DNA from: Candidatus Woesebacteria bacterium RIFCSPHIGHO2_01_FULL_44_10
GTDB lineage: Bacteria > Patescibacteriota > Microgenomatia > UBA8517
NCBI GenBank assembly: GCA_001792465.1
Contig: MGGO01000008.1
Coordinates: 20,575 to 55,289 of the forward strand
Length of the DNA stretch: 34,715 bases
Reading direction: 5' to 3'
In this document: positions 20,111 through 34,715 of the stretch, piece by piece
Layout: each line of letters begins with the position of its first letter
Numbering within the stretch: position 1 is the stretch's first letter
Translations under genes and position numbers: made by a program
Notes under the pieces: model-generated
What the model was told of the DNA's origin: nothing
The model's input: the letters and a program-made list of their open reading frames with translations, nothing else
Databases searched by the model: none

Positions 20111-20119
20111 TAAAAGGCT

Positions 20120-22147
20120 ATGGGTAAATTTCGGCTGAAAGCTAATTTTAAAGCCACTCCGGATCAGCAGAAAGCGATTGATGCGCTTGTTGCCGGTGTG
20201 GAAAAGGGCAAAAAGTATCAGACTCTCTTGGGAGTCACGGGAAGCGGAAAAACATTCAGTGTTGCGAACGTAATTGAGCGCCTGCAGCAGCCAGCCTTGA
20301 TTATTTCCCACAATAAAACCTTAGCGGCGCAGTTGTATCAGGAATTCAGAGATTTTTTCCCAACCAATGCCGTTTCCTACTTTGTTTCTTACTATGATTA
20401 TTATCAGCCCGAAGCTTATATCCCGAGCACCGATACTTATATCGAAAAAGACGCGGGCATTAACGAGTTAATAGATAAATTGCGCCTGGCCGCCACAGCC
20501 AATATTTTAACCAGGCCAGATACCATTGTGGTGTCCAGCGTTTCCTGTATTTACAACATCGGCTCACCCGTCGAGTACGAGAAATTTGTCCTTCGACTTC
20601 GCTCAGGATTAAAAATCGGCAGAGATGAGATCATCAATCACTTGCTCGACCTGCAATACGACCGTGGGGATTTTGGTTTCCATAGGGGCACTTTCCGCGT
20701 CCGCGGCGACAGTGTTGACGTATTTCTGGCCTACCAAGACGAGGGCGTTCGCATTGAGATCTCGGGTGACAAAATTGCTGCCATTTCATCAATTAATCCT
20801 GTTTCCGGGTCAGTTATCACCAAACACCAATCACCAGTCACCATTTTCCCCTCCAAGCACTACGTTGCCGACACGACCAACATTGAGGCGATCTTTAAAC
20901 AAATTAAAGCCGATGCCCAAAAACAAACCCATGAACTTACCAAGCAAGGTAAGCTTCTTGAAGCCCAGAGGTTATCTCAAAGAGTAGAGTATGACTTGGA
21001 AATGATTCGCGAGGCGGGCTATGTCAAGGGCATCGAAAATTATTCCAGGTATTTTGACGGAAGAGCGCCAGGTGAGGCTCCATATAGCTTACTGGATTAT
21101 TTTACGCACGCTGCGGGCCGCGATCCTTCGACAGGCTCAGGACCTGGGGGTTGGCTGGTTTTCGCGGATGAAAGCCATATTACTTTTCCCCAAATACGCG
21201 GCATGTATGCCGGGGATTTATCCAGGAAAAAGACGCTCATCGAGTACGGTTTTAGATTACCGGCGGCTTTAGATAACCGCCCACTCAAATTTGATGAGTT
21301 CATGCGAAGGATCCCGGGGTTTATTGCCACTTCGGCCACTCCGGCCCAGTGGGAGCTATCCATGAGCGGCAAGCCGGTTGAGCAGCTTTTACGGCCCACA
21401 GGCATTCCGGATCCCGAAGTCGAAATTAGGCCCGTTAAAAATCAGGTATCTGATGTTATAAAGGAAATTAAAAAAAGAGCTAATCCGCCGGCTGGCGGAG
21501 TCAAACAAAGAAGCCTGGTAACAACTTTAACCAAGGCAACGGCCGAAGACCTGGCTGACTATTTAGCCCAGCAGGACTTAAAGGTCCACTATCTGCATAG
21601 TGGCGTCAAAACGCTTGATAGGGGAGATATCTTGGACGACTTGCGCAGTGGAAAATATGACTGCTTGGTGGGCATAAATCTTTTGCGGGAAGGCCTTGAC
21701 CTGCCCGAGGTCTCGCTCGTCGCCATTTTGGATGCAGACAAAGAAGGATTTTTGCGAAGCGACGTGACTCTGATTCAAACCATGGGCCGAGCCGCCAGAC
21801 ACGTTGAAGGTAGAGTTATTTTGTACGCTGACCGAGTCACAGGCAGTATGAAGAGAGCCTTGTCTGAGGTTAAAAGGCGGAGAAAATTTCAACTAGCTAT
21901 GAACAAAAAGCTTGGGGTAACACCAAAACCAATTAAAAAACCAATCAGAGAAAAATTAATTAAGCGTGAAGAAATTCTCCAGACAACCGTCTTTAGCCGG
22001 CTTCCTGAAACCGATTCTTTAACCCCCATGGATAAACGCCGCCTGGTGCGTGATTTGAATCGCGAAATGCGCCTCGCTGCTTCAGACCTTAACTTCGAAC
22101 TCGCAGCCGAGATTAGAGACAAAATTAAAGAGCTAGAAACTTCATGA
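20120..22147 (+). CDS. uvrB: Excinuclease ABC subunit B
   Basis: GVTGSGKT Walker A, NKTLAAQLYQEF, YYDYYQPEAY, DESH, GFRLPAALDNRPLKFDEF, GINLLREGLDLPEVSLVAILDADKEGFLRS, and the C-terminal UVR motif (AAEIRDKIKELE). Confidence 0.97.
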   Translation: MGKFRLKANFKATPDQQKAIDALVAGVEKGKKYQTLLGVTGSGKTFSVANVIERLQQPALIISHNKTLAAQLYQEFRDFFPTNAVSYFVSYYDYYQPEAYIPSTDTYIEKDAGINELIDKLRLAATANILTRPDTIVVSSVSCIYNIGSPVEYEKFVLRLRSGLKIGRDEIINHLLDLQYDRGDFGFHRGTFRVRGDSVDVFLAYQDEGVRIEISGDKIAAISSINPVSGSVITKHQSPVTIFPSKHYVADTTNIEAIFKQIKADAQKQTHELTKQGKLLEAQRLSQRVEYDLEMIREAGYVKGIENYSRYFDGRAPGEAPYSLLDYFTHAAGRDPSTGSGPGGWLVFADESHITFPQIRGMYAGDLSRKKTLIEYGFRLPAALDNRPLKFDEFMRRIPGFIATSATPAQWELSMSGKPVEQLLRPTGIPDPEVEIRPVKNQVSDVIKEIKKRANPPAGGVKQRSLVTTLTKATAEDLADYLAQQDLKVHYLHSGVKTLDRGDILDDLRSGKYDCLVGINLLREGLDLPEVSLVAILDADKEGFLRSDVTLIQTMGRAARHVEGRVILYADRVTGSMKRALSEVKRRRKFQLAMNKKLGVTPKPIKKPIREKLIKREEILQTTVFSRLPETDSLTPMDKRRLVRDLNREMRLAASDLNFELAAEIRDKIKELETS

Positions 22148-22187
22148 TATAATGCATATTGCCACGGATAATCGGTGGTCGTTTTGC

Positions 22188-24998
22188 ATGCAGGAAACTA
22201 TCAAAATCAGAGGGGCCAGAGAACACAACCTGAAAAACATTGATTTGGAGTTTCCCAAAAATAAATTGGTTGTTTTTACGGGCGTTTCGGGCAGTGGCAA
22301 AAGTTCCCTTGCTTTCGACACTATTTATGCAGAGGGCCAAAGACGGTATGTGGAGTCCTTGAGTTCATATGCAAGACAGTTTTTGGGAGTGATGGCCAAG
22401 CCGGACGTGGATTTAATCGAGGGCCTGTCTCCGGCTATTTCAATTGATCAAAAAACCACTTCTGCCAATCCCAGAAGTACTGTGGGAACCATAACGGAAG
22501 TATACGACTATCTACGATTGCTTTTTGCCCGCATTGGTCATCCACATTGTCCAATTTGTGGCAGGGAAATAGCGAATCAGTCGCTTGACCAAATTGTCGG
22601 CGGGGTTATTGATTTTATTAAAAACTCTGCCAAAGACAAAAAACTCGTCAAGCTTTTATTTTTCTCCCCACTGGTGGAGGGCAGAAAAGGCGAATACTCG
22701 GGCCTTTTGGAAAACTTGAGAGCCAAGGGCTACAAAAGAGTCAGAATTGATAACGTCATGCACAAACTTGATGAGGAAATTATTCTTATCAAGACAAATA
22801 AACACACGATTGAGGTTGAAGTGGACAGAATAAGCGTTTCGTCTTTGGATAACCTATCCGGAAGAATTACCCAAAGTGTTGAGGAAGCACTCAAACTGTC
22901 TGAGGGGCTTGTTATTATGAGTGAAGTCAAAGATATTGGATTTGGGATTCCGGAGATTCCGAAAAGCTTTACCGATCACCTTTTTAGTGAGCGTTTTGCC
23001 TGCCCGGTCGACAACATTCAAATTGCCGAAATCGAACCTCGGACCTTTTCTTTTAACTCGCCGCACGGAGCTTGCCCAAGCTGTACCGGTATCGGCAGAA
23101 TTCTTAAAGTTGACCCGGAGCGCATTTTTGCCCAAGAGCTTTCCATCACTGAAGGTGGAATCCTGCCTTATGCCAATGCTTTTGATCAAAACACTTGGTT
23201 TTCAAGAATTATTGCCCGATTTGCCTGGGAAAACGATATCAATATTAAAACTCCCATTAAAAATTTAACCGCTCAGCAAAAAAAGATGCTTCTTTGGGGA
23301 AACGGCAGATCACGCTTTGAGGGCATCGCCAATCAAATCGAAAGAAGGCACAGGACAACGCAGTCAGACTACGCCAGAGCCGCCTATGAGAAATTCATGC
23401 GGGAAGTAATTTGCGAGGCCTGCGAGGGCCGGCGACTCAAGAAAGAAGCCTTGGCCATAACCATTGAAGGAATGAGTATTAGCCAGATAACTGACCTGTC
23501 TATCAAGGATGCTCAAGAGTGGGTAGAAAGCTTGCCCGACGGGCCCGTCGCCAGGCTGATCGTTAAAGAAATTGTTACCAGGTTAAATTTTTTGATTTCG
23601 GTAGGGCTTGACTACCTGACTCTCGGGAGAGCCGCGGGAACTCTGGCCGGGGGTGAAGCTCAAAGAATCAGGCTTGCCAGTCAAATTGGCACGGGGTTAA
23701 CGGGAGTTTTGTATGTTTTGGATGAACCAACGATTGGACTCCACCCACGGGACAATGCCAGGCTAATTGCGACGTTAAAAAACTTAAGAGATTTAGGCAA
23801 TACGGTCATCGTCGTTGAGCACGACGCGGAGATGATGAACTCCTCAGACTACTTGGTTGATTTTGGACCGGGGGCCGGCAAGCAAGGCGGAGCAATTATC
23901 GCCAGCGGAAGTTCTGAACAAGTAGCTAAAAACTCAAACTCAATTACGGGACAGTATTTGAGTGGGAAAAGGAAAATAAGTATTACAGGTATTACAAGTA
24001 GTAAAAGTAGTAAAAGCTTAAGATTATTGGGCGCGGCCCAATATAATCTCAAAAACATCGATTTAGAAATTCCTTTGGGGAAGTTTGTGGCAGTTACCGG
24101 AGTATCCGGATCTGGCAAGTCAACGCTCATTGTAGAAACCCTTTACCACGGCCTAAATCACGAAATGAATCCGGCTTACCGCAGTCAACCCGGGGAATAC
24201 AAAAAAATTGAAGGGCAGCAAAACGTCAATAAAGTCAGTTTAATCGACCAATCTCCAATTGGCCGAACTCCAAGAAGCAATCCCGCAACTTATACCAAAA
24301 CTTTTGACTTGATAAGACAAGCTTTTGCCAGTACCCGAGATGCACGAGCCGCGGGCTACAAGCCAGGCAGGTTTTCCTTCAACGTCAAGGGTGGGCGCTG
24401 TGAAGCTTGTGAAGGCCAAGGCCAAGTCAAAATCGAGATGCAGTTTATGGCTGACATTTGGGTCGTTTGTGAGGTCTGTAAGGGCACCCGGTACAATAAA
24501 CAAACTTTGGAAGTGGAGTATAAAGGCAAAAATATCTCCGATGTTTTAAGTCTGACGGTTGCTGAAGCCGAGGAATTTTTCCATGCGCATCCTGCCATAG
24601 TTCGCAAACTTGAAACTCTTCAAGCCGTTGGCCTTGACTATATGGAGCTTGGTCAATCAGCACCGACCTTGTCGGGCGGTGAAGCCCAAAGAGTCAAACT
24701 GGCCGCGGAATTGGGCAAAAAGCACTCCGGCCACGTGATGTATATTTTAGACGAGCCAACAACCGGACTCCATTTTGCTGATTTGGAGAAGCTTCTGCGT
24801 GTATTAAAATTATTAGTCAGCAAAGGAAACACGGTGATTGTCATCGAACACAATCTCGATATCATCAAAAACGCCGATTGGATCATTGATTTGGGGCCGG
24901 AGGGTGGGGAAAAAGGTGGAGAAGTCATTGCCCAAGGAACTCCTGACCACGTCAGAAAACAAAAAAATTCCTACACGGGCCAATTTTTGTCAAAATGA
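22188..24998 (+). CDS. uvrA: Excinuclease ABC subunit A
   Basis: MQETIKIRGAREHNLKNI aligns with canonical UvrA N-termini. It has two ABC modules (GVSGSGKSSLAFDT, GVSGSGKSTL), two LSGGE signatures and zinc-finger Cys pairs. The upstream ATG at 22152 lies inside a TATAAT box and was not used. Confidence 0.96.
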   Translation: MQETIKIRGAREHNLKNIDLEFPKNKLVVFTGVSGSGKSSLAFDTIYAEGQRRYVESLSSYARQFLGVMAKPDVDLIEGLSPAISIDQKTTSANPRSTVGTITEVYDYLRLLFARIGHPHCPICGREIANQSLDQIVGGVIDFIKNSAKDKKLVKLLFFSPLVEGRKGEYSGLLENLRAKGYKRVRIDNVMHKLDEEIILIKTNKHTIEVEVDRISVSSLDNLSGRITQSVEEALKLSEGLVIMSEVKDIGFGIPEIPKSFTDHLFSERFACPVDNIQIAEIEPRTFSFNSPHGACPSCTGIGRILKVDPERIFAQELSITEGGILPYANAFDQNTWFSRIIARFAWENDINIKTPIKNLTAQQKKMLLWGNGRSRFEGIANQIERRHRTTQSDYARAAYEKFMREVICEACEGRRLKKEALAITIEGMSISQITDLSIKDAQEWVESLPDGPVARLIVKEIVTRLNFLISVGLDYLTLGRAAGTLAGGEAQRIRLASQIGTGLTGVLYVLDEPTIGLHPRDNARLIATLKNLRDLGNTVIVVEHDAEMMNSSDYLVDFGPGAGKQGGAIIASGSSEQVAKNSNSITGQYLSGKRKISITGITSSKSSKSLRLLGAAQYNLKNIDLEIPLGKFVAVTGVSGSGKSTLIVETLYHGLNHEMNPAYRSQPGEYKKIEGQQNVNKVSLIDQSPIGRTPRSNPATYTKTFDLIRQAFASTRDARAAGYKPGRFSFNVKGGRCEACEGQGQVKIEMQFMADIWVVCEVCKGTRYNKQTLEVEYKGKNISDVLSLTVAEAEEFFHAHPAIVRKLETLQAVGLDYMELGQSAPTLSGGEAQRVKLAAELGKKHSGHVMYILDEPTTGLHFADLEKLLRVLKLLVSKGNTVIVIEHNLDIIKNADWIIDLGPEGGEKGGEVIAQGTPDHVRKQKNSYTGQFLSK

Positions 24999-26800
24999 AA
25001 AAAATTTTCTTGCTTATTTTAAGTTTATTTTTTCTTTTCCCTGCAAATGTTTCTGCAGAAAGTGAATTTTTAACCAAAGCGGAGGTAGTTTATGACGTCG
25101 GAGAAGACGGGGTGACAACAGTCACCAACAACATTACTTTAACTAACGTCTTTTCAAACCTTTATGCCACAAGCTACGCCATGCAGGTTGAGGGCTTAGA
25201 ACCCACAAGCGTGAAGGCAGTGGAGGCAGGCCAAGTGCTACCCGTTACAATCGAAAAAGATGGAGAAAAAACAGTCATCAGAGTCGAGTTTGAAAGAGAT
25301 GTTGTCGGAAAAGGCAAACAACGCAACTTCACTATCAGTTTTACAGAGCGGTCTCTTGCGGTCAAGACTGGTGAGGTTTGGGAAACAGCGGTCCCAAAGC
25401 TGGGTGCACAAGACTCCTTTGATTCCTACACTCTTATTTTACAGGTTCCCAAGTCTTTCGGCCAAGCCGCTTTTATTTCTCCCCAACCGATAACTTCAAG
25501 TGAGAAAGACAATAAATACAGGTATGTTTTTGACAAAGACAGTGCCAGCGCGCACGGCGTGACCGCCGCCTTCGGCCGTTTCCAGGTTTTTGAATTTAAC
25601 CTCGTTTACCACCTTGAAAATCCCCTGACCAAAACGGCTGTTGTTGGTATCGCCATTCCTCCTGATACCGCGTTTCAAAAAGTAAATTATAAAACACTTG
25701 ACCCCGCACCCGAAGTAGTCCAAGTTGACCAAGATGGGAACTGGATTGCAACGTATAAGCTCACCTCCAGACAGAGGTTAGACGTTCGCGCAACCGGGGC
25801 AGTGCAAATCTTTGCTACAGAAAGGCAATTTCCCAAGCCAAATTCAGTTTCTTTGCAACAAAATCTACTTGCCACCGACGTTTGGCAAACTACCGATCCA
25901 AGAATCATCAATCTGGCAAAGCAACTTATTACCCCAAAACAAATATATGATTATGTGGTAGCTACTCTGATATACGACTATGACCGAGTGAGGCCCAACA
26001 TCAACCGCCTGGGGGCCATTGACGCTCTTGCAAACCCGGGGAGCGCGATCTGCATGGAGTTTACGGATCTTTTTGTAGCCCTGGCCCGGGCCGCGGGTAT
26101 TCCGGCCCGTGAAGTAAATGGCTATGCTTATACCGAAAATAGGCAGCTTCAACCGCTTTCCCTGGTTGCCGATGTTTTACACGCCTGGCCTGAGTATTGG
26201 GATGACGTTAGAGGTGTCTGGGTGCCCATCGACCCCACTTGGGGGTCAACCACCGGTGGGGTTGACTTTTTTACCAAGCTTGATTTAAGACACTTTGCCT
26301 TTGTCATGCACGGGATAAACCCTGACAAGCCTTTCCCCCCGGGATCATATAAACTGGGTGCCAATCCCCAGAAAGATGTCTATGTCGCCTTTGGCAGCTT
26401 GCCAAGCCAGCGCAAAAGCATACCCAAAATTGAGATTGAAGTCCAAAAGGCGCTGCCTTTCATGGCAACTTCCGCAAAAATAATTGTTAAAAACGACGGG
26501 CCGGTGGCCCTTTATGACTTAAACGTCTTAATTCTTTTCGACACTAAAATAGAAACTGAAAAAACCATCGCCATTTTGCCCGTTTACGGAAAACAGGAGT
26601 ACCAAGTTTCAATTCCGTTTAGCATTTTGGGCGTTAACACTCCGCAAAATATCAAAGTTGTCGTCGGGGGCAATTCGCTAACGGCTCCGTCTTCCAAAAA
26701 TTGGGTTATACTAATGAGTTTAGCCACCATCTTTTTAATTATTGGCCTAACTATCGGCTTTATTTATTGGAGAGTGAAAATTCATGAGAATAACAGTTAA
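24995..26800 (+). CDS. Secreted, C-terminally membrane-anchored transglutaminase-like cysteine protease domain protein
   Basis: Sec signal MKKIFLLILSLFFLFPANVSA, then a transglutaminase-core Cys/His/Asp (CMEFTDLFVALARAAGIPAREVNGY, HAWPEYW, WVPIDPTW) and a C-terminal TM helix (ILMSLATIFLIIGLTIGFIYW). It overlaps uvrA by ATGA and uvrC by 17 nt. Confidence 0.8.
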   Translation: MKKIFLLILSLFFLFPANVSAESEFLTKAEVVYDVGEDGVTTVTNNITLTNVFSNLYATSYAMQVEGLEPTSVKAVEAGQVLPVTIEKDGEKTVIRVEFERDVVGKGKQRNFTISFTERSLAVKTGEVWETAVPKLGAQDSFDSYTLILQVPKSFGQAAFISPQPITSSEKDNKYRYVFDKDSASAHGVTAAFGRFQVFEFNLVYHLENPLTKTAVVGIAIPPDTAFQKVNYKTLDPAPEVVQVDQDGNWIATYKLTSRQRLDVRATGAVQIFATERQFPKPNSVSLQQNLLATDVWQTTDPRIINLAKQLITPKQIYDYVVATLIYDYDRVRPNINRLGAIDALANPGSAICMEFTDLFVALARAAGIPAREVNGYAYTENRQLQPLSLVADVLHAWPEYWDDVRGVWVPIDPTWGSTTGGVDFFTKLDLRHFAFVMHGINPDKPFPPGSYKLGANPQKDVYVAFGSLPSQRKSIPKIEIEVQKALPFMATSAKIIVKNDGPVALYDLNVLILFDTKIETEKTIAILPVYGKQEYQVSIPFSILGVNTPQNIKVVVGGNSLTAPSSKNWVILMSLATIFLIIGLTIGFIYWRVKIHENNS

Positions 26801-28040
26801 CCTGCCGGACACACCGGGAGTGTATCGTTTTTTAGACCACGGCGGCAAAACACTCTATATCGGTAAAGCTAGAAACCTAAAAAATAGAGTTGCTTCTTAC
26901 TTCCTAAAAAGCGTGTTTGGAAAAACCAAGAAGATGGTTAGCCAGGCTAAGAGTATTTCTTGGGTGAAAACACTTTCTGATTTTGAAGCCATATTGCTTG
27001 AAGCCCAGTTGGTCAGAAAACACCAGCCTTTTTACAACGTTCAGTTAAAAGACGACAAATCTCCAATTTATATTGTGATCACGCAGGACGAATTCCCCCG
27101 GGTGACAATGGCGCGGAAAAGCGGCACTTTTGGCCCCTATACTAATGCTCAAACTGTCCGCAAGGTTTTAAAACTAATACGGCGGATTTATCCTTTTAGT
27201 CAGCACAAAGTTGGCAGAAAGGCTTGTCTTTATAACCAAATGGGTTTATGTAGCCCGTGTCCAAATACGATTAAAAACTCTGTACAAAAGCAAAAATATT
27301 TGCAAAATATCAAAAACATTAAAAAGCTTCTGAGCGGGGACTTGAAATTTGTCCGTAATGATTTGGGAAAAGAGATGCAGAAATATTCGAAAAAAAACAA
27401 CTTTGAGGAAGCGCAAAAAGTATTAACTAAGATGCAAATCCTTGATTATGTGACGACTCCAACCACTGTGGTAGAGAGGTACCTTAATAATCCCAATCTA
27501 GCGGAGGATTTACGCCAGCAAGAGGCGCAGAATCTGGCCCGCTACGTACAAGGTCCGTCCTTGTACGTAGGGCGGATAGAGTGCTATGATGTAGCTCATC
27601 TGGCTGGGACCAATCCTACCGCCTCAATGGTCACTTTCGTGGATGGTGAGCCGGACAAAAACCGGTATCGGCACTTTAAGATCAAAAAGGCCAGGCGGGG
27701 AGATGACTATGGAGCCTTGAAAGAGGTGCTAGAAAGAAGAAAAAAGAGATTTGAAGACTGGGGGAAGCCAGATTTGATAATTGTTGATGGTGGAAAGGGC
27801 CAGTTGTCAGCTGCCCTGGAAGTATTTGGCTATGATTTACCGGTCGTCGGGTTAGCCAAAAAATTTGAAACACTCGTTTCCTTCCAAAATGGCAAGTTTG
27901 TTTCTACCCGACTGCCTGCCGGACCTGCGCGAAATTTAGTAGTTCGTCTGCGCGATGAAGCCCACCGCTTTGCCCGCCGCCTCCACCATAAACAAGTCGC
28001 CAAAACCTTAACCCAAAATTTGCCAAGTGTGGTAGAATGA
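26784..28040 (+). CDS. uvrC: Excinuclease ABC subunit C, short form lacking the C-terminal (HhH)2 domain
   Basis: GIY-YIG domain (PGVYRFLD..TLYIGKARNLKNRVASYF), UVR motif (FEEAQKVLTKMQILD) and the RNase H-like endonuclease domain (IECYDVAHL, DLIIVDGGKGQL, VVGLAKKFE, LRDEAHRFA). The protein ends ~25 aa later at 418 aa. Confidence 0.9.
   Translation: MRITVNLPDTPGVYRFLDHGGKTLYIGKARNLKNRVASYFLKSVFGKTKKMVSQAKSISWVKTLSDFEAILLEAQLVRKHQPFYNVQLKDDKSPIYIVITQDEFPRVTMARKSGTFGPYTNAQTVRKVLKLIRRIYPFSQHKVGRKACLYNQMGLCSPCPNTIKNSVQKQKYLQNIKNIKKLLSGDLKFVRNDLGKEMQKYSKKNNFEEAQKVLTKMQILDYVTTPTTVVERYLNNPNLAEDLRQQEAQNLARYVQGPSLYVGRIECYDVAHLAGTNPTASMVTFVDGEPDKNRYRHFKIKKARRGDDYGALKEVLERRKKRFEDWGKPDLIIVDGGKGQLSAALEVFGYDLPVVGLAKKFETLVSFQNGKFVSTRLPAGPARNLVVRLRDEAHRFARRLHHKQVAKTLTQNLPSVVE
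28013..28031 (+). repeat. Direct repeat copy 1 (CCAAAATTTGCCAAGTGTG) inside the last codons of uvrC
   Basis: An exact 19-mer that recurs at 31966-31984. It extends to TTAACC(C)AAAATTTGCCAAGTGTG if one C indel is allowed. Confidence 0.9.
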
Positions 28041-28044
28041 ATTA

Positions 28045-28140
28045 ATGACTGCCGGGGAAACAAAGGTCTATTCTGAGTTTTTTACGAACCTCGCAGTAGC
28101 TTGGTTTTCTGCCGGGGCCAAGGGAGGAAACAAACCATGA
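28045..28140 (+). CDS. Mini-ORF 1 (31 aa, MTAGETKVYSEFFTNLAVAWFSAGAKGGNKP)
   Basis: The ATG lies 4 nt after the uvrC stop codon. The ORF ends in an ATGA overlap with mini-ORF 2 and contains the GGAGG that serves as the SD for mini-ORF 2. Confidence 0.3.
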   Translation: MTAGETKVYSEFFTNLAVAWFSAGAKGGNKP

Positions 28141-28241
28141 TAACAACAGAACAACTATGGCTCGCATTTGCTTTCGCCGCAATTGGTACAAATTTAATCG
28201 GTTTTTGGGCAATCTATCGTGTCACAAGAAAGAAAAAATGA
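28137..28241 (+). CDS. Mini-ORF 2 (34 aa single-TM peptide, MITTEQLWLAFAFAAIGTNLIGFWAIYRVTRKKK)
   Basis: GGAGG lies 8 nt upstream of the ATG. The peptide has one hydrophobic helix and a basic C-terminus. It has ATGA overlaps on both sides. Confidence 0.45.
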   Translation: MITTEQLWLAFAFAAIGTNLIGFWAIYRVTRKKK

Positions 28242-28324
28242 ACCCTGAAACAGTAGTTTATGCCTTAGCAATTATTACCAGCCTTATTACGGTGTATTTG
28301 CTTTTTTTCAAATACAAAGACTAA
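28238..28324 (+). CDS. Mini-ORF 3 (28 aa single-TM peptide, MNPETVVYALAIITSLITVYLLFFKYKD)
   Basis: ATGA-coupled to mini-ORF 2, with one hydrophobic helix. All three mini-ORFs fall below the 60-aa cut-off of the ORF track. Confidence 0.4.
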   Translation: MNPETVVYALAIITSLITVYLLFFKYKD

Positions 28325-28326
28325 GG

Positions 28327-28362
28327 CCCAAAACTTGACAAAAGTTGGGGAAAATGTAAACT
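28327..28362 (+). repeat. Promoter-like module, copy C (CCCAAAACTTGACAAAAGTTG ... TAAACT)
   Basis: It shares an exact 21-mer with 32053-32073. TTGACA (28335-28340), a 16-nt spacer and TAAACT (28357-28362) precede the GTG at 28369 by 6 nt. AACTT-GACAA-AAGTT is an inverted repeat. Confidence 0.6.
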
Positions 28363-28368
28363 CAAATT

Positions 28369-29628
28369 GTGAGAGTTAACAAATTTCCCGCAAGGCTGAA
28401 ACCGAGAAACATTCTCCAAAAACTAATTCCTTTCCTTAAAACAGAGGAAATTCTTTTATTATACGGAATGAGACAAACAGGCAAAACTTCGCTCATGTTT
28501 CTTCTTATGAATTATCTTCTCAACAAGAAGGTTGAACAATCCCAAATTGTTTATCTTGACTTGGAGAACATCGCTGACTTTGAGGCCTTAGAAAAAATCA
28601 GAGATTTTGACAATTTTATCAATCTACTTAAAGTCGTCCATAGGGTAAACATCAAAAAAAGAACTTTCATTTTCATCGACGAGATTCAACACCTAACTAA
28701 CCCCTCATCATTCTTAAAATACCTTCACGACCACTATAAACCCAATCTAAAGTTTATCGTTTCAGGGTCATCATCTCTGGAAATTAAAAAGAAATTTAGC
28801 GACGCTTTAACCGGTAGGATTTTACGGTTTGAAGTTCTCCCGCTTGAATACAAAGAATTTTTAAACTTCAGCGACCAGAAATCCTCTCTAACCAATTTTG
28901 AGGAATTCATTCTCTACGGCGGTTTTCCGGCAATCTCTTTGAAAAGTGATAGTGAAACCAAAGAACTGCTTCTAAAAGAAATTTATTCCCTTTATGTCAG
29001 GCGAGATATTAAAGATATCGGCGCGATCGAAGATATTTTATCTTTCAACCGATTGGCCGGTATTTTAGCAGCCCAGATCGGAAGTTTAGTTTCTGAAGTC
29101 AATCTATCCAATGCGGTTGACATTTCCAGACCAACAACAAAGAATTATCTTTTTATCCTTCAAAACACTTTTGTTATTAATCTTTTAACACCCTTCTTCA
29201 CCAATCCTAAAAAGGAATTAACTAAAACCCCCAAGGTCTATTTCAATGATACGGGATTAAGAAATGCGGCACTAGATAATTTCACTGACCTATCAAAAAG
29301 GGTCGACAAAGGATCCTTGGCAGAAAATGCTGTCTTTTCCGAGTTAAAAAAAGCGGGCATTGAAAAAATCAACTTCTGGCGTACCGAGCGCAAACAGGAA
29401 ATTGACTTTATTCTCCAAATTCAGGGAGAGATCTTCCCATTGGAAGTAAAATATCAAACCTTTAGAAACCCAAGAATTTCCTCCAACTTAAAAACGTTTA
29501 TCAAAAAATACCAGCCCGCAAAAGCCTATATCGCGACAAAAAACTTCAAGACCCAAACCGACTTTTTAGCCACCAAAGTTTATTTTGTTCCCTGTTACAA
29601 GCTGAACTATTTACTGCTTAAGGCGTAA
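28369..29628 (+). CDS. AAA+ ATPase of the COG1373 / DUF4143 family with a PD-(D/E)xK-like C-terminal region
   Basis: Walker A GMRQTGKTSL and Walker B FIFIDEIQH. The C-terminus reads ERKQEIDFILQ....FPLEVKYQ, which is restriction-endonuclease-like. The start codon is GTG. Confidence 0.8.
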   Translation: MRVNKFPARLKPRNILQKLIPFLKTEEILLLYGMRQTGKTSLMFLLMNYLLNKKVEQSQIVYLDLENIADFEALEKIRDFDNFINLLKVVHRVNIKKRTFIFIDEIQHLTNPSSFLKYLHDHYKPNLKFIVSGSSSLEIKKKFSDALTGRILRFEVLPLEYKEFLNFSDQKSSLTNFEEFILYGGFPAISLKSDSETKELLLKEIYSLYVRRDIKDIGAIEDILSFNRLAGILAAQIGSLVSEVNLSNAVDISRPTTKNYLFILQNTFVINLLTPFFTNPKKELTKTPKVYFNDTGLRNAALDNFTDLSKRVDKGSLAENAVFSELKKAGIEKINFWRTERKQEIDFILQIQGEIFPLEVKYQTFRNPRISSNLKTFIKKYQPAKAYIATKNFKTQTDFLATKVYFVPCYKLNYLLLKA

Positions 29629-29660
29629 CATTTCTGTAAGCATCCAGCACAGAAAAAAAT

Positions 29661-29748
29661 TTGCGTGGTATGTTATAATGAAAAAACGATTTGTCAAGGC
29701 CCAAAACTTGACAATCTAACCTGAAAGGAATATTATAGGGTTATAAAT
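29661..29748 (+). repeat. Promoter-like module, copy A (88 nt, paralogous to 32014-32101)
   Basis: 47/57 identity to copy B over the core at 29692-29748, and 18/31 over the upstream part. It contains TGTTATAAT (29671-29679), the inverted repeat TTGTCAAG-N8-CTTGACAA (29691-29714), and TTGACA-17-TATTAT (29708-29736). Confidence 0.75.
29681..29714 (-). terminator. Possible terminator of the minus-strand MTase/NTase/NUDIX operon
   Basis: The minus strand reads TTGTCAAG-ttttgggc-CTTGACAA, then atcg, then TTTTTT. The T-run is offset by 4 nt from the stem, so the terminator is non-canonical. Confidence 0.3.
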
Positions 29749-29750
29749 CC

Positions 29751-30200
29751 CTATTTTGTGAGGCCCAGTTGTTGCGGAGCAGTGGCAGCTCTTTCATCTA
29801 TAACCTCTTTTAGATGTTTTCTATAAAGTTTAAAATATTTCATTAGACCGGATGTCAAATCTAGTTTGTCAATATCTCTTGTTCTAAACCAGCCTAGTTC
29901 TTGTCCTTCATTCCCAAGTTTTACCCTTTTGAATTCGCTAGGGGTGAGCCTGACTGTAAAAAAAGCATGCTTAATAAAAAAGAAAACAGACAAATTTCCA
30001 AGGTAAGTAATGTTTTTAGGTACTATATCAATTTCTTCTTTGAGTTCGCGAATTAGGGCCTCTTTATGATTTTCTCCTGGCTCCAAACCCCCGCCCGGCA
30101 ACGACCACTTATCCGCCTCTTTTAACCCAGGAATATTGTCTCTTTGGATAAGTAGTATTTTTTTCCTGTATATAACAATAGCTTTTGAAGACGATTTCAT
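29751..30200 (-). CDS. NUDIX hydrolase
   Basis: Nudix box GGGLEPGENHKEALIRELKEEIDI. TGTTATATC (30215-30207, minus strand) lies 6 nt upstream of the ATG. Confidence 0.88.
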   Translation of the reverse strand: MKSSSKAIVIYRKKILLIQRDNIPGLKEADKWSLPGGGLEPGENHKEALIRELKEEIDIVPKNITYLGNLSVFFFIKHAFFTVRLTPSEFKRVKLGNEGQELGWFRTRDIDKLDLTSGLMKYFKLYRKHLKEVIDERAATAPQQLGLTK

Positions 30201-30231
30201 TGTTTGGATATAACATCAGCTGATTCGTCAT

Positions 30232-30993
30232 TTATTGCAAGAAAAACTTCCTCCGATCTATAATCACATTTAGATCAGAAATCTCTCGTATTATCTCTAT
30301 TCTTGCTCCATCAATAGGATTTACTTCTCCATCCATTTCGCCAAATTGAGGGTCAAAAACAACTCCTTCGTAGTGAAATGGTAAATGATGGTAATCGGAA
30401 GCATTGGTGATAACACCAGATATGCGGGCTTTTTCAAGAACTTCGTAAGCCCTTCTGCTCTTTTCTCTCCCGTATATCCCGAAATCAAGTTCATGTCTTT
30501 TTACCGGCTGACCAAACATAAGAGAACTTCCCGTAATTCCAATGTCATCAATACCAACCTCAATAAGTTTACACAAATTTCTTAAAGCTTCACCATCTTT
30601 GGGAATTTTGTCAAGATATGCCGGGGTAAAAGAATGTGGATCTTTGATCTCTTGAACATATTTTGTGGACAAAAAAGAAACTTTTCCTAGGTTCTCTTTT
30701 TCAACAAGGTCCTGAACCATCGGTAAGTATGTAATCCTATAAGAGGAGATCGACTGCCCAAAAACCTTTAAGTATTTTTGGCCATTAAGTTCTAATGACT
30801 TTTGTTCCGCCAGTTCCATAGATTCATCAACTGGTATGTAGGAAAGAATACAGGGTAATGCATCTTTCACGCCATTAACTGTCCAAGACCCGCAGCAGTA
30901 CCAGAAAGACCCATCGCTCGAACGTATAATGCTTCCAATAAGAGCATGGGGAGGGAAACTAACCAATCTTTCCTGCAAATATTCTGGTATCAT
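30232..30993 (-). CDS. Hypothetical protein with a C-terminal minimal nucleotidyltransferase-like (Pol-beta fold) motif
   Basis: IDDIGITGSSLMFGQPVKRHELDFGIYG fits the hG[GS]-x(9-13)-[DE]h[DE]h NTase pattern, with a later acidic strand VVFDPQF. The N-terminal ~140 aa are Cys/Trp-containing (FWYCCGSWTVNG) and unrecognised. It overlaps the upstream MTase gene by ATGA. Confidence 0.45.
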   Translation of the reverse strand: MIPEYLQERLVSFPPHALIGSIIRSSDGSFWYCCGSWTVNGVKDALPCILSYIPVDESMELAEQKSLELNGQKYLKVFGQSISSYRITYLPMVQDLVEKENLGKVSFLSTKYVQEIKDPHSFTPAYLDKIPKDGEALRNLCKLIEVGIDDIGITGSSLMFGQPVKRHELDFGIYGREKSRRAYEVLEKARISGVITNASDYHHLPFHYEGVVFDPQFGEMDGEVNPIDGARIEIIREISDLNVIIDRRKFFLQ

Positions 30994-31832
30994 ACAACGG
31001 GTGATTTGACAGCTTTGATATCTCCGAAATAAACAGGGACATGTCTTCCCAAGCGATTGACATGATATTTGCCAAACTCGGTGCGTAAAGGCTTCCCGTC
31101 AGCTATGATTGGCTGACCGTTTTCATCGTGCTGTATTTTAGCCTTTGTGATTAGAGACTGATTGAAGACATGACTCATATCATTAGCAAACTCGACTCTG
31201 AATCGCTGTTGCATTAACGCTGATACGTGATGTTCCATTGTCTGTGTTTTGAACACATAAATCCGGTCAAAAATTGCTAACGCCTCAGCCTCTATTTCTG
31301 TGAGCTCTCTGTTATGCTTAAAAACACCTTTATCGTACACAAATCCACCCGGTCTCAGAACCCTGTAGACTTCTGAATACAATCTTTCCAGTGAGTACGA
31401 ATATCCCGAAGATTCAAGGAAATAAATACCGTCAAAGGTATTGTCAGGAAAAGGTAACTCGTGAAAATCACACACATATACCTGGATGTGGTCACTCAGA
31501 CCCTTTTCTTGAACCAGTCGATGACCGATCTTTGCTTGTTCCAGTGAAAGCGTTACAGCACTGATTCTCGTTGTTTCTGTGAAATTAACAATATCAATAG
31601 CAGGTCCACAGGTACCACAACCAGCGTCGAGGAGGCAACTTCCAGATTTAATTCCCATCTTTTTTGCCACAAATTCATTGGTCTCGCGGTATGGATCTTC
31701 CTTGTAATGAATAAGTGTTGCAGCCTGGTAGCTATAGCCAATGTTATCAAGAATTAGTCGATTCATTCGATTGTAGTATTCTTTAACACTCTGTCGATAC
31801 TCCGAGAATTGTGGATGGTCTACTTCGGCCAT
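30990..31832 (-). CDS. Class I SAM-dependent methyltransferase (Methyltransf_11 / sterol-MT-like small-molecule type)
   Basis: Motif I LLDAGCGTCGPAIDI, the post-I acidic residue, HELPFPDNTFDGIYFLES and LRPGGFVY. The ATG at 31832 (MAEVDHPQF) is preferred over the TTG at 31925 used in the ORF track. Confidence 0.8.
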   Translation of the reverse strand: MAEVDHPQFSEYRQSVKEYYNRMNRLILDNIGYSYQAATLIHYKEDPYRETNEFVAKKMGIKSGSCLLDAGCGTCGPAIDIVNFTETTRISAVTLSLEQAKIGHRLVQEKGLSDHIQVYVCDFHELPFPDNTFDGIYFLESSGYSYSLERLYSEVYRVLRPGGFVYDKGVFKHNRELTEIEAEALAIFDRIYVFKTQTMEHHVSALMQQRFRVEFANDMSHVFNQSLITKAKIQHDENGQPIIADGKPLRTEFGKYHVNRLGRHVPVYFGDIKAVKSPVV

Positions 31833-31924
31833 TGTTGATAGAATACTATTTCTGTAGTTAAATCTCCACTTTGGGCTACACCCTGCCTCCGCACACCACC
31901 ACACGGCCAAACGCAATCTCCCCA

Positions 31925-31990
31925 ATGAGTAAGATTGGCCAGCCTGTGGGTGGGCTTTTGGTTAACCAAAATTTGCCAAGTGTGTTTTGA
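31925..31990 (+). pseudogene. 21-codon ORF that looks like a relic or duplicate of the uvrC 3' end (..VNQNLPSVF*)
   Basis: It contains direct-repeat copy 2 in the same reading frame as in uvrC (..LTQNLPSVVE*). Confidence 0.3.
31966..31984 (+). repeat. Direct repeat copy 2 (CCAAAATTTGCCAAGTGTG)
   Basis: Exact match to 28013-28031, located 3,953 bp downstream. Confidence 0.9.
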
Positions 31991-32013
31991 ACGGAGTTCT
32001 TAAACACGAGTGC

Positions 32014-32101
32014 TTGCGCGATGTGCTATACTAAATTAAACTAATGTCAAGACCCAAAACTTGACAAAAGTTGAGGAAAGTAATATTATAGGGTTATAAA
32101 T
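32014..32101 (+). repeat. Promoter-like module, copy B, immediately upstream of the ATG at 32102
   Basis: TGCTATACT (32024-32032), the inverted repeat TGTCAAG-N8-CTTGACA (32045-32067), TTGACA (32061-32066), a 17-nt spacer and TATTAT (32084-32089), then 12 nt to the ATG. Confidence 0.75.
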
Positions 32102-32638
32102 ATGGCAACAGCAGAAAGAACGGCTGAAAAAAGAACAAACTTTGGAAAGATAACTAGAAGGGATTTCTTAAGGGTAGGTTTCGCGGCTTTACTCAGTAGC
32201 TTGCCTGCTGTCCAAACAGCAAGCACGTTAATTAATTCTCCCGCCGAAAGTGAAACTTCTGAGGAATCAAGAAACATAGATCACAGCAGGAGCGTTTACT
32301 CACACGCCAACGAAAGAGAAAATAACCTAACTCCAGTAACACTAAAAAACGGGGACCTGATTACTTGGAAGTGGAACGATCCTGGGGGATTCGAAGCTGT
32401 ATTCAAGGTTGATGTTAGTTTGGAACCAGACCTAAATTTTGGTGCGACCATAGTCCCAGAACACGTACGTGAACAGGGAACAGCCATTTGGGGGTACAGC
32501 TCCCTTGTACCAATTACGGGTGACATGGAATTTCATACAGAGGAGGTAAGAGGTTTGCAAATTAATGGTAAGCCTGTTGTTTGTCGTGCGGAAACATTTT
32601 CTCCAAGGCAGATGAGCGATTGTTTCCTCCAAAATTAA
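32102..32638 (+). CDS. Secreted protein with a twin-arginine (Tat) signal peptide
   Basis: The N-terminus KITRRDFLRVGFAALLSSLPAVQTAS matches the S/T-R-R-x-F-L-K consensus. The mature part is not recognised. Confidence 0.7.
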   Translation: MATAERTAEKRTNFGKITRRDFLRVGFAALLSSLPAVQTASTLINSPAESETSEESRNIDHSRSVYSHANERENNLTPVTLKNGDLITWKWNDPGGFEAVFKVDVSLEPDLNFGATIVPEHVREQGTAIWGYSSLVPITGDMEFHTEEVRGLQINGKPVVCRAETFSPRQMSDCFLQN

Positions 32639-32684
32639 AGTAGACAAACAAGTTTTAATATAATATTACAATTAGGGGCAATTC

Positions 32685-33455
32685 ATGTCCGAAGACGTAA
32701 TCACAAGACGAACTGCTTTAAAGACCTTTGGATTTGCTCTTGGCTCTATTCTGGCTTCCCCAAAAGAATCCGTCAAATCCTTACAAAGAGCTTCTGACTG
32801 GAAGTTAGCGTCTCAAAAACAAAAGAAGTGGCAAGAATTCCAAAAATCTGAAGAATTTAGGAAATTAAATATAGAACATGGTACCAGAGGTGCGGAATTT
32901 GACTTTGGGCAATATGGTTACGCAGAAGCAGAAGGGGCTAGATATTTTGATGGAGCGCCAGTAAGGCACGATGTTAATTTTTTCTTCTCTTCAGTCACTT
33001 TTGACGAGGAAACCCAACAATGGAACCCAAACCCAGAATTTCTAGCTGGGTTTGTCTATGGATATCGTGAGGAGGAAGGGCAAGGTTTAAAAAATTATTT
33101 CACTGGAGAAGAATTTTTGGCTGACTCAAGAACACTCTTTATACACGGTCAAAGGTGGATCGATGGTCTTGGCTGGATTCGCTTAGTCCCAGAAACAGAA
33201 AATAGGCAAAACGCCTCACAGATAAAAATTTACACTTCTTATAATACCGTTGGTAGGGAAGAACCAATAGAGTTTATTGTAGCGGAATCAACCAGGATTC
33301 CTCTAACCCTTGAGGCTACTTACATCAAGAATTCGGGGCGAAGGACAATGCAAAATCCTGCAGGGCATTACTACCTGATCAGCTGTTGGCCGTTCAACGA
33401 AGAAGGGCCAAACACCAGGGAAAGACAGGTTTATAGTCTTCGTAAAGTCAACTAG
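32685..33455 (+). CDS. Exported protein with a Tat-like signal; possible sortase-like cysteine transpeptidase fold (tentative)
   Basis: Signal VITRRTALKTFGFALGSILAS, and AGGGG SD 8 nt upstream of the ATG. The C-terminal part has His154 (LFIHGQR), Cys234 (YYLISC) and Arg247 (C+13, RERQVY). This echoes S. aureus SrtA, which has LITC...NE...R at C+13. Confidence 0.6.
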   Translation: MSEDVITRRTALKTFGFALGSILASPKESVKSLQRASDWKLASQKQKKWQEFQKSEEFRKLNIEHGTRGAEFDFGQYGYAEAEGARYFDGAPVRHDVNFFFSSVTFDEETQQWNPNPEFLAGFVYGYREEEGQGLKNYFTGEEFLADSRTLFIHGQRWIDGLGWIRLVPETENRQNASQIKIYTSYNTVGREEPIEFIVAESTRIPLTLEATYIKNSGRRTMQNPAGHYYLISCWPFNEEGPNTRERQVYSLRKVN

Positions 33456-33509
33456 ACACCACAGATTATTGACTTCTACACTTTTTTTACTCTAAGCTAG
33501 AGTTACAGT

Positions 33510-34181
33510 ATGCCCAACGAAACTAGTGGTTTTGCAAAACTTAAACTAGTCACGGTAACAATAATTTCATTGATCGTCGGACTTTCTTTGGTTATTACAT
33601 TATTAGTTCTACTAAGGCTCGGTAAACTCGAATTTAACACCTATCTCCTTAGAAAAAACCCTTTGATCAATAGCTATTTTCTTCCACCAGGCGAATTGGT
33701 GGTAATATCTAATCATCCGAACTATAGTTTAATGATTAACAACGCTCCATTACTATTAGGATATGCAGATAAGGTTGGGTTATTCCGAAAGTCTGGAATT
33801 TCTTTCCCTTTCCAAAAGGGAGTTCGTATCGACAAGCTGGTGGTTTTCGTAACAAGTGAGGACGGTCCTTCGTCGGGGCAAAACTCATCCCAAGTTTTAT
33901 CCCCGTTGTCAATTTCCAGTATACGAGTCGACAATGAGAACAACTCTCATTCTCTACTGTTTACTTTTAGCATTAATGAAAAATTTATCACTCAGCAAAA
34001 TGTTAGCAATCGTGAGCTGTCCACAAATTTAAATTCCATGGTTCTATTCAACATAGAAACTACTTTACTCGATAAAAAAATTGATATGCAAAAATGGCAA
34101 GATATTTTATCTAATTACCAGGCTATGATGGAGCACGTGTTTGAACAAAATAAAATTCCAATCCTTGTTCAAAACAGATAA
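33510..34181 (+). CDS. N-terminally membrane-anchored hypothetical protein
   Basis: A single N-terminal TM helix (LVTVTIISLIVGLSLVITLLVLL) and a Ser/Asn-rich ectodomain. No family recognised. Confidence 0.6.
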   Translation: MPNETSGFAKLKLVTVTIISLIVGLSLVITLLVLLRLGKLEFNTYLLRKNPLINSYFLPPGELVVISNHPNYSLMINNAPLLLGYADKVGLFRKSGISFPFQKGVRIDKLVVFVTSEDGPSSGQNSSQVLSPLSISSIRVDNENNSHSLLFTFSINEKFITQQNVSNRELSTNLNSMVLFNIETTLLDKKIDMQKWQDILSNYQAMMEHVFEQNKIPILVQNR

Positions 34182-34185
34182 CTCA

Positions 34186-34715
34186 ATGAGAAAGGACAAT
34201 TTGATTATTTACTTTAGATCTACCTTGACAAGTTCATTAGTCATTTTATTTTCTTTCACAATTTTTCTCACCTGGATTTCCGAACCAGGCTTTCTTAAGC
34301 CGAAAGATGTTTTAGCGCAAGAATGCTATCAAGTATGTAATCAGTGTGACCCTCAAGGCTGTTATTGCACTATAATATGCCCAGGATTTCCACCTGCCCC
34401 TCCTCCAGAATGCAGATCTGGTGGCTGTTGCGAGCTTGGTGTGAACTGCGGTGATGTGCCAGTCCCAACAGATGCAGCAGGGAATCCGATTACACCTGGT
34501 GAGTGTAGATGTGAGGATAATATTGAGTGTTGCGCAGGGTACAGGGAGTATGATGGGCAGGAAACAACTCTTTATCTTTCAGTGAAAGACAAAGAGTCAG
34601 CAGTGCCCAACCCATACATCGAATACAAAAGAAGCGGGAATGGGCAAGCTGCGAACAATGTCATTGTTGATGTGGGGGACACCATTTACTTTTATCCCTC
34701 TCCTGCTTTCAGGAG
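34186..34715 (+). CDS. Cys-rich exported protein, 3'-truncated by the window end
   Basis: Not in the ORF track because the reading frame stays open to the window end. N-terminal TM/signal (LTSSLVILFSFTIFLTW), then 14 Cys in ~80 aa (ECYQVCNQCDPQGCYCTIICPG ... GGCCELGVNCG ... GECRCEDNIECCAGY). Confidence 0.6.
   Translation, partial: MRKDNLIIYFRSTLTSSLVILFSFTIFLTWISEPGFLKPKDVLAQECYQVCNQCDPQGCYCTIICPGFPPAPPPECRSGGCCELGVNCGDVPVPTDAAGNPITPGECRCEDNIECCAGYREYDGQETTLYLSVKDKESAVPNPYIEYKRSGNGQAANNVIVDVGDTIYFYPSPAFR

Follow-up and report, generated by a model that had tools for sequence, protein, structure and literature searches.

The DNA downstream of uvrC in a groundwater Patescibacterium, Candidatus Woesebacteria bacterium RIFCSPHIGHO2_01_FULL_44_10, is read here, with somewhat better than even confidence, as an array of promoter-headed cassettes that has been remodelled by recombination at repeated promoter units. 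The stretch analyzed (contig MGGO01000008.1, hereafter the window) is 34,715 nt long, and all coordinates refer to its full length. The evidence that carries this reading comprises the repeats themselves, the homology of the promoter units across loci, a nested insertion with a matching empty site, an orphaned promoter, truncated genes, and the absence of about 8.4 kb from relatives. Patescibacteria, or the candidate phyla radiation (CPR), have tiny genomes with few recognisable mobile-element enzymes, and their exchange of accessory and defence genes is poorly understood. At this locus, cassettes of one or a few genes appear to have been swapped at short repeated promoter units with no recombinase nearby, and orphan promoters and truncated genes remain.

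The contigs compared with the window are designated by L-numbers. L001 carries the window locus, and its gene table reaches 3.3 kb past the window end; L032 and L053, as well as L052, represent other arrangements from the same aquifer. All proteins of the block discussed below and the larger open reading frames (ORFs) of the window were scanned against Pfam, NCBIfam, PADLOC and PHROGs.

A preliminary description of the window had reported an exact 19-bp duplication at the end of uvrC and interpreted it as the scar of a site-specifically integrated genomic island. The duplication itself is real and non-random. The 19-mer CCAAAATTTGCCAAGTGTG occurs exactly twice on the plus strand, at 28013-28031 (copy A) and 31966-31984 (copy B), with a start-to-start distance of 3,953 bp, and no other match with up to two mismatches was found in the window (0.01 expected in shuffles). 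An exact same-strand repeat of at least 19 nt was obtained in only one of 200 first-order Markov simulations of the window. The TTAACC(C) extension, which involves a single C indel and brings the pair to 25 identical positions out of 26, the uvrC tail ..QNLPSVVE*, and the 21-codon ORF that ends ..QNLPSVF* in the equivalent frame at copy B all read as described. Similarity around the two copies is lost abruptly on both sides.

The pair does not stand alone. Four exact direct repeats of 19-21 nt are present in the window, all of them within 28013-32101. Exact repeats are also formed by AAGGCCCAAAACTTGACAA (28323 and 29696; a further copy, at 32049, is 94% identical), CCCAAAACTTGACAAAAGTTG (28327 and 32053) and AATATTATAGGGTTATAAAT (29729 and 32082), and a direct repeat of about 88 bp links 29661-29748 with 32014-32101 in a gapped alignment. 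A diverged third copy of the 19-mer region, AAAATTTGCGTGGTATGTTATAATGA, lies at 29656. The 19-mer pair (28013/31966) and the longer pair (29661/32014) interleave and are not nested, so the 19-mer does not form an isolated bracket.

Alignment of these sequences revealed a promoter unit of about 100 bp, present in three copies within 28.0-32.1 kb, all in plus orientation. U1 spans the region from the uvrC stop codon to the start of the AAA_14 gene, U2 separates the convergent AAA_14 and NUDIX genes, and U3 the methyltransferase (MTase) operon from o178. The layout begins with a TTAA-centred palindrome, followed by the A box (TTTGCCAAG-TRTGn-TAnnnT) and about 12 nt; then come the hairpin TTGTCAAGGCCCAAAACTTGACAA (the P box, which holds the -35 element), 17 nt, TATTAT, a short leader and the ATG. 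By consensus, TTTGCCAAG with TRTGn and the TAnnnT hexamer makes the A box an extended -10 promoter. The units and the genes around them are arranged as follows:

26784-28040, plus strand: short form of uvrC (418 amino acids, aa), with GIY-YIG and UvrC RNase H domains (Pfam)
28007-28039, plus strand: A box copy A, TTAACC-CAAAATTTGCCAAG-TGTGG-TAGAAT, which holds the 19-mer and an intact TRTGn and -10, and heads the mini-ORF operon
28045-28324, plus strand: three ATGA-overlapping mini-ORFs (ORF1, 28045-28140; ORF2, 28137-28241; ORF3, 28238-28324)
28323-28362, plus strand: P box copy 1, consisting of AAGGCCCAAAACTTGACAA (28323-28341), spacer S and a -10; predicted native promoter of the AAA_14 gene
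28342-29714, plus strand: AAA_14 cassette of 1,373 bp (spacer S, gene, Q1 and second P copy), missing from L032, L041 and L053
28369-29628, plus strand: AAA_14 + DUF4143 gene (COG1373; 419 aa), an ATPase/PD-(D/E)XK protein, PADLOC PDC-S01
29656-29748, plus strand: U2, with Q1 (TATGT-TATAAT), the hairpin TTGTCAAG-GCCCAAAA-CTTGACAA containing P copy 2, and TTGACA-17-TATTAT
29751-30200, minus strand: NUDIX hydrolase (149 aa; Pfam 4.6e-18), last gene of its operon
30232-30993, minus strand: truncated member of a putative OB-Pol-beta-nucleotidyltransferase (NTase)-OB family (253 aa; relatives 300-321 aa)
30990-31832, minus strand: class I S-adenosylmethionine (SAM) MTase, CMAS/UbiE-like, whose stop codon overlaps the NTase-like start
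31941-31984, plus strand: A box copy B, with the hairpin AGCCTGTGGGTGGGCT, the perfect palindrome TTTTGGTTAACCAAAA (31956-31971) and the 19-mer (31966-31984)
32014-32101, plus strand: U3, with the A-type box Q2 (TGTGC-TATACT), a hairpin containing P copy 3, and TTGACA-17-TATTAT, ending exactly at the o178 ATG
32102-34715, plus strand: o178, o256, o223 and the start (34141) of a 753-aa ORF, with no known domain and with N-terminal signal- or transmembrane-like segments

Within this layout, the 19-mer corresponds to the 5′ half of a predicted promoter box, the A box. The last eight or so codons of uvrC (QNLPSVVE*) come from A-box sequence. The QNLPS tail is present in none of 119 UvrC relatives, which end 5-9 residues after the conserved HHKxV, and the relative with 62% identity (L028) terminates in ..AKTLQTA*. 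Because the tail is missing from all of these proteins, and because the same sequence constitutes the mini-ORF promoter at an unrelated locus (L032, L052), the 19-mer is not the native 3′ end of uvrC, whose frame has been extended into the A box; the proposal that the repeat regenerates the end of the target gene is thus not supported. Homologs of copy A are found at L032rc 4910-4939 and at L052 710-766 and 1415-1460, and copy A appears to be the intact promoter of the three translationally coupled mini-ORFs. TRTGn plus TAnnnT is intact in the A boxes at window positions 28028, 29669 and 32022, at L032 4920 and at L052 250 and 1454; the whole window contains only seven such sites, counting both strands.

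The other boxes differ in their state of preservation. TTGACA-17-TATTAT at 29708-29736 and 32061-32089 matches the sigma-70 consensus at 11 of 12 positions in each case, and TTGACA-16-TAAACT is found at 28335-28362, in P box copy 1 and the sequence downstream of it. In U2, Q1 is a diverged A box, and transcription from the unit would run into the convergent NUDIX gene at its 3′ end. Since 29696-29748 is 94% identical to the promoter of a radical SAM gene in L032, U2 is best regarded as the orphaned promoter of that gene, predicted to be non-functional in its present context given the gene end into which it points. At copy B, similarity ends directly after TGTG, the next bases being TTTTGAAC; as the box is cut at this point and lacks a -10, copy B is predicted to be a dead promoter remnant, and it heads no gene. 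The hairpin TTGTCAAG-GCCCAAAA-CTTGACAA (29691-29714 and 32045-32066) consists of two -35-like boxes back to back, and on the minus strand the U2 hairpin is followed by a T-run at 29681-29690. The U2/U3 hairpin could therefore be read either as a bidirectional promoter core or as a terminator of the NUDIX operon.

Could the repeats be conserved regulatory DNA only, that is, promoters and operators of co-regulated genes kept by purifying selection, with no bearing on mobility? We consider this improbable. It would account for the strong promoter signatures at the expected distance from start codons, for TTAA-centred palindromes at the same position in A boxes of differing sequence, and for the exact occurrence of GGGGAAAATGTAAACT upstream of AAA_14 genes in unrelated genomes. 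It does not account for copy B, which has neither a -10 nor a gene to head, or for U2 with its orientation into the end of a convergent gene. Moreover, similarity between the units ends abruptly, the units track the presence or absence of whole genes between arrangements, and none of the more than 20 housekeeping genes of the window has a unit upstream. Units were not found in the first 27 kb of the window, in the L001 DNA beyond the block, or in distant relatives. A possible relationship to LexA boxes was dropped, as the regions upstream of lexA (18596-19240) and uvrB are not similar to the units.

The AAA_14 cassette is a nested insertion. It is bracketed by an exact 19-bp P repeat (28323-28341 and 29696-29714), and in L032, L041 and L053 the order is ORF3, P promoter and radical SAM gene, with no AAA_14 gene between them. 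L032 thus provides a genuine empty site for this inner 1,373-bp cassette, not for the 19-mer pair. The module in L032 consists of a 203-aa gene, the palindrome TCGCGTTAAACGCGA, the A box ATTTGCCAAGTATGGTATATT, ORF1 (68 aa), ORF2 and ORF3, followed by the P box, TTTAACCTGAAAGGAATATTATAGGTTTACAAAT and the ATG of the radical SAM enzyme (Pfam 6.4e-17). Homology between L032 and the window starts at 28018, inside the 19-mer, and amounts to 82% up to 28118; 28120-28341 is 97.7% identical to L032rc, where the mini-ORFs occupy 4937-5325. The mini-ORFs in L032-type loci lie directly upstream of the radical SAM enzyme, which has a CNESCIHC motif; this gene is gone in the window.

The AAA_14 gene seems to carry its own promoter, because TTGACA...GGGGAAAATGTAAACT is kept upstream of homologs with 66-68% identity. 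The 16-mer GGGGAAAATGTAAACT is exact in two such homologs from unrelated genomes (L057 and L060) and lies 8-12 nt before the start codon (window 28342-28368; L057 4956-5001; L060 56-94). This points to conservation of a promoter or regulatory site in this PDC-S01 subfamily and to transcripts that are nearly leaderless. Signs of recent spread were sought, and no near-identical AAA_14 copy was found elsewhere, the closest being 68% identical. In L057, the closest homolog on a long contig (66%), the gene adjoins six tandem T4SS_pilin paralogs and an extracytoplasmic function sigma factor gene (6297-8680).

L052 represents a third arrangement. The left end of this contig lies in ORF2 (96% identical to the window) and its right end in a homolog of the 753-aa ORF (81% aa and 91% nucleotide identity), so that any linkage to uvrC would lie outside it. 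Its middle part contains a P box fused to the right half of an A box, hicB-hicA, an orphan A box and a 76-aa gene, then a remnant of the end of the 203-aa gene, a complete A+P unit and three unrelated ORFs. In total, L052 holds three further A boxes, one of them orphaned. With conserved flanks and promoter units at nearly every joint, it shows the pattern of a hypervariable locus. Genes for a HicB-like antitoxin and an overlapping HicA-like toxin (L052 269-720) fill the position held by AAA_14 in the window, and MNT/HepT-like pairs (nucleotidyltransferase plus DUF86-like) are located nearby in L032; toxin-antitoxin modules therefore share these variable loci.

A sister strain, L076, is 98.6% identical to the window across the block, and the 5′ half of its AAA_14 gene is recombinant. 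It is identical to the window from TTTGCCAAGTGTG rightwards and different immediately to the left, after a scaffold gap. Contig L066, considered as a recombinant with an L032-type left and a window-type right part, was dropped: it has N at every diagnostic position and represents a collapsed consensus. Among window-type contigs, which stem from many samples, identity over the region is 99.95-100% and the order does not change. A metagenome scan with the P box returned 13 matches, 11 of which were unrelated chance matches; the true ones were L032 and L041, from samples of the same aquifer, and L053 was added later. Absence from this collection is weak evidence, as the collection is incomplete and missed L029, which carries the motif. 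In viral scans, all three P-box matches were unrelated chance matches and the 19-mer had no match.

Repeats of this length at gene boundaries are reminiscent of miniature inverted-repeat transposable elements (MITEs). In that case, the unit would be a non-autonomous mobile element of about 100 bp, comparable to the Correia elements of Neisseria, that inserted at TTAA or TA and later served as a substrate for rearrangement. The multiple direct-orientation copies at gene boundaries in several arrangements, the TTAA at the left edge of three A boxes, and the outward-facing promoters agree with such an origin. We nevertheless hold it to be very doubtful, as no terminal inverted repeats or target-site duplications were recognised in the unit alignments, the A and P halves can be separated by mini-ORFs so that unit length is not fixed, and only two related contig families were found in the incomplete metagenome collection. 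Like the units described here, Correia elements are repeats of about 100 bp that lie at gene boundaries, provide promoters and serve as substrates of recombination. The units differ in that no terminal inverted repeats or target duplications were seen, and their copy number, as far as the data reach, is low and restricted to the locus.

Comparison with relatives showed that the variable region extends well beyond the two 19-mers. In L008-L010 (44-53% UvrC identity) the order lexA-uvrB-uvrA-transglutaminase-uvrC is followed directly by holin_4_2-secG-SBP_bac_5, and in L028 (62%) one unrelated 389-aa gene lies between uvrC and holin_4_2; this gene was considered as a relative of the 753-aa ORF and found not to be homologous. 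In the window genome, holin_4_2-secG-SBP_bac_5 is located 8.36 kb downstream of the uvrC stop codon (L001 19616 onwards), so the lineage-specific region comprises about 8.4 kb. It contains AAA_14, the NUDIX/NTase-like/MTase operon, o178, o256, o223 and the 753-aa ORF, continues for about 1.7 kb past the window end, and has copy B in its middle. Relatives at 44-62% UvrC identity lack the entire region, including o178, o256, o223 and the 753-aa ORF, and their junction is not at copy B; the region missing from relatives does not end at 31984.

The accessory nature of the bracketed DNA was well founded. Its genes, which had also been identified correctly as three mini-ORFs, AAA_14/DUF4143 and a minus-strand operon of MTase, unknown and NUDIX genes (Pfam), do not follow uvrC in any relative. 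The proposed check of its composition against the flanks revealed a deviation in both measures: the GC content of the block is 0.388, compared with a minimum of 0.428 in same-size chunks of the core and with 0.448 and 0.441 in the flanks, and its tetranucleotide z-score is 12.6. The part from o178 to the 753-aa ORF has a core-like GC content (0.441) and a deviant tetranucleotide profile. The 753-aa ORF (34141-34715; L002 17358-19619) gave only a weak DUF7305 match and overlaps the conserved holin_4_2 start; the N-terminal part of its L052 homolog (3901-4446) is cysteine-rich and looks secreted.

The island hypothesis can be put as follows: a single 3.95-kb non-autonomous element entered the uvrC end by Campbell-type site-specific integration at a 19-25-bp core, with the recombinase encoded elsewhere and the two 19-mers as attL and attR. 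Its empty site would read uvrC...CCAAAATTTGCCAAGTGTG/TTTTGAACGG and its circle junction TTTTGGTTAACCAAAATTTGCCAAGTGTG/GTAGAATGAATTAATG; for the 1,373-bp AAA_14 cassette, the corresponding circle junction would read Q1-P/S. The exact direct repeat, the abrupt flanks and a GC content unlike that of either flank speak for this model. Joining the right end of the block (palindrome plus TTTGCCAAGTGTG) to its left end (GTAGAATGAATTAATG-ORF1) would also rebuild an intact unit like that of L032, and the pre-insertion uvrC would keep a short tail (..PSVF*). We nevertheless judge a single island to be rather unlikely. As the preliminary description had noted, no integrase, transposase or excisionase is visible, and this holds for the window proteins in all four protein scans (Pfam, NCBIfam, PADLOC and PHROGs) and for L001 up to 3.3 kb beyond. 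PHROGs yielded no phage hallmarks or anything else relevant among these proteins, and the tRNA and Rfam searches likewise gave no relevant hit. No junction of uvrC with the sequence from 31985 onwards, as an empty site for the 19-mer pair would require, was found among the contigs compared, and the order is the same in every one of the 22 contigs that carry o178 and of the 10 that carry the MTase gene. The core is not native to uvrC in any of the 119 relatives, the block has its own repeat-flanked cassette nested inside, and the U2/U3 repeats interleave across its boundary.

Some contigs do break near uvrC: L005-L007 end at 28149-28163, and L050 and L051 start at 28221 and 28312. These breaks are not a sign of insertion polymorphism. 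The 222-bp repeat shared with the L032 locus (97.7%) starts at 28120, and this start plus one k-mer length matches the breaks, which are thus explained by the repeat.

What stands of the integration-scar interpretation is that the repeat marks recombination joints with abrupt flanks; the notion of a single unit is contradicted by the nested cassette and the orphan promoter. The 19-mer was also checked as a dispersed repeat: it has no further copy in the window, and the A-box family to which it belongs recurs at junctions in L032 and L052. We infer that the block was put together from at least three modules, which were acquired separately and have partly decayed.

In the model that we favour, the locus would be an array whose small accessory cassettes vary between strains, with the promoter unit, whole or as a fragment, at the head of each. 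The two 19-mers would represent two A boxes, of which copy A became joined to the end of uvrC, whose frame now terminates inside it, and copy B stayed behind at a recombination joint as a truncated piece without promoter. Cassettes would be gained, lost and swapped through recombination between units, most likely homologous or short-homology recombination between unit copies on incoming or sister DNA. This type of recombination is favoured because the joints fall at several points within the units (in the A box itself, in the P box after CTTGACAA, and at the ATG after the R segment) and because identity is mosaic. In this best-supported reading, remodelling of the array would have left U2 and copy B as orphan promoters, with gene decay seen in ORF1, in the NTase-like gene and in the loss of the radical SAM gene.

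Several observations weigh against this model. The 25/26 identity of the 19-mer pair exceeds that of the other A boxes (80-95%); one recent event, for example a Campbell integration, would explain this no less well than gene conversion. Three of the joints in P boxes coincide to the nucleotide, after CTTGACAA, a precision that characterises site-specific mechanisms more than homologous recombination; together with the units rebuilt when the ends of the 3.95-kb and 1.37-kb segments are joined, this shared joint keeps a site-specific Campbell-type mechanism in consideration. L032 and L052 are not assignable to a genome and may be paralogous loci or alleles of other strains. The promoter activity of the boxes is deduced from consensus only. 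Finally, the nearest UvrC relative is only 62% identical, and since the databases contain no relative at 63-99% identity, the order of events is not reconstructable.

The recurrent joint also admits a bolder version, in which the bidirectional promoter unit of about 100 bp doubles as a recombination site for cassette exchange, a kind of promoter-as-attC, used by an unrecognised recombinase or by short-homology recombination. PDC-S01 ATPases, HicAB pairs and radical SAM modules would then be plugged in ready for expression, and the footprints of the process would be the joint that recurs after CTTGACAA in three independent junctions, together with the complete units rebuilt at the two putative circle junctions. 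We regard this as quite unlikely. Relative to homologous or short-homology exchange in a promoter-headed array, known systems provide several points of reference. Integron arrays resemble the locus in having cassettes of one to three genes, a recurring junction element, content that differs between co-occurring strains, and, in the 1,373-bp cassette, a single-gene unit with a matching empty site. Unlike integrons, the locus has no IntI or attI (the integrase domain is absent from the window and the L001 extension), and its junctions are sigma-70-type promoters with an 8-bp-stem hairpin and not attC sites (no dedicated attC model was run). In addition, each cassette comes with its own promoter, and both orientations are found, one operon being inverted.

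Integrase-mediated islands likewise have an exact direct repeat around low-GC accessory genes beside a housekeeping gene, with ends that rebuild the site when joined. Here, however, there is no integrase or tRNA, the repeat is a promoter fragment and not the end of the target gene, and one copy is truncated; the repeat family occurs both inside and outside the block, and lineage-specific DNA extends about 4.4 kb beyond the right repeat. Replacement-type flexible islands are matched by the shared flanks of L052 and the window (left, 96%; right, 91% nucleotide identity) around unrelated middle genes, by the mosaic identity and by the recombinant alleles (L076). In contrast to such islands, crossovers here seem to use short internal promoter repeats and not just the outer flanks, and orphaned promoters and truncated genes have built up at the locus. 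Accessory loci that vary, candidate defence genes and recombination at short repeats have all been described before; what is new is a shared promoter unit as the recurrent joint, with an empty site, in a recombinase-poor CPR genome. If the arrangement is general, promoter repeats could locate variable and defence loci in CPR genomes where integrase- and tRNA-based island finders fail. The locus also demonstrates that a short exact repeat overlapping a gene end is insufficient evidence of an att scar.

The block had been proposed as a possible defence-type module. Among its genes, only AAA_14/DUF4143 is a candidate for such a role. The encoded protein matches PF13173 (4.8e-30) and PF13635 (1.8e-41), and the PADLOC model PDC-S01 (PDLC04789) over residues 13-393 (8.2e-85). 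It agrees with this family in its full-length hidden Markov model match, its two-domain architecture, its location as a solitary gene in a variable region, and the toxin-antitoxin-type neighbours in sister arrangements, and no difference from the family was noted. PDC-S01, an ATPase fused to a PD-(D/E)XK nuclease (PMC12988326, PMC3424549), is a very common single-gene defence candidate that has not been validated, as is the case for most PDC candidates (PMC12988326). The proposal does not extend to the MTase, which is predicted to be a small-molecule- or lipid-type class I enzyme, not a DNA methyltransferase.

The NTase-like gene has suffered a deletion of about 160 bp, by which the C-terminal OB domain (about 65 residues) was lost. 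Its family is small and uncharacterised: a word search retrieved six proteins and a profile search 45 representative clusters. The members share an invariant GITGSS..RHELDF motif. NTP_transf_2 was weakly matched by 5 of 34 members (best 1.6e-4) and Polbeta by 2 of 34. A model of the full-length protein based on the 34 sequences reached a predicted local distance difference test (pLDDT) value of 92.6; the AlphaFold model from six sequences was unusable (pLDDT 52). Domain-level Foldseek searches with the former gave weak matches to CCA-adding enzyme, ANT(2′′) and CdnC (E 0.09-0.34), plus OB-folds. No significant whole-chain match was found in the PDB, and a profile search against PDB sequences was empty. 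The matches to OB-fold and Pol-beta nucleotidyltransferase domains fit the GITGSS...RHELDF motif and the weak NTP_transf_2 matches. The pairing of NTase-like and NUDIX genes is conserved in L054 and L056. We consider the MTase, OB-NTase and NUDIX genes to be an uncharacterised module that probably acts on nucleotides or nucleic-acid ends, and that is probably impaired in the window. Among about 10 independent assemblies of the 8-21-kb locus, all four population single-nucleotide polymorphisms fall in the NTase-like gene, within 110 bp (30447-30555), and the rest of the locus is invariant.

The mini-ORFs of the window encode peptides of 31 (ORF1), 34 (ORF2) and 28 aa (ORF3). ORF1 has an in-frame deletion of 111 bp relative to the 68-aa version of L032 and L053, ORF2 and ORF3 encode hydrophobic single-helix peptides, and ORF2 is annotated as a gene in L052 and L053. 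The three could belong to a peptide-maturation or small-membrane-protein module.

The short uvrC (418 aa) lacks the C-terminal helix-hairpin-helix domain. It is the last gene of a cluster (18596-28040) composed of lexA (divergent), uvrB, uvrA, a gene encoding a transglutaminase-like membrane protein, and uvrC, which is kept in relatives down to 44% UvrC identity. The transglutaminase-like gene overlaps both uvrA and uvrC. At the other end of the window, a single ORF (2-1570) encodes an apparent GatC-GatA fusion, with GatC at residues 22-93 and the GatA amidase at residues 135-502, and is followed by gatB.

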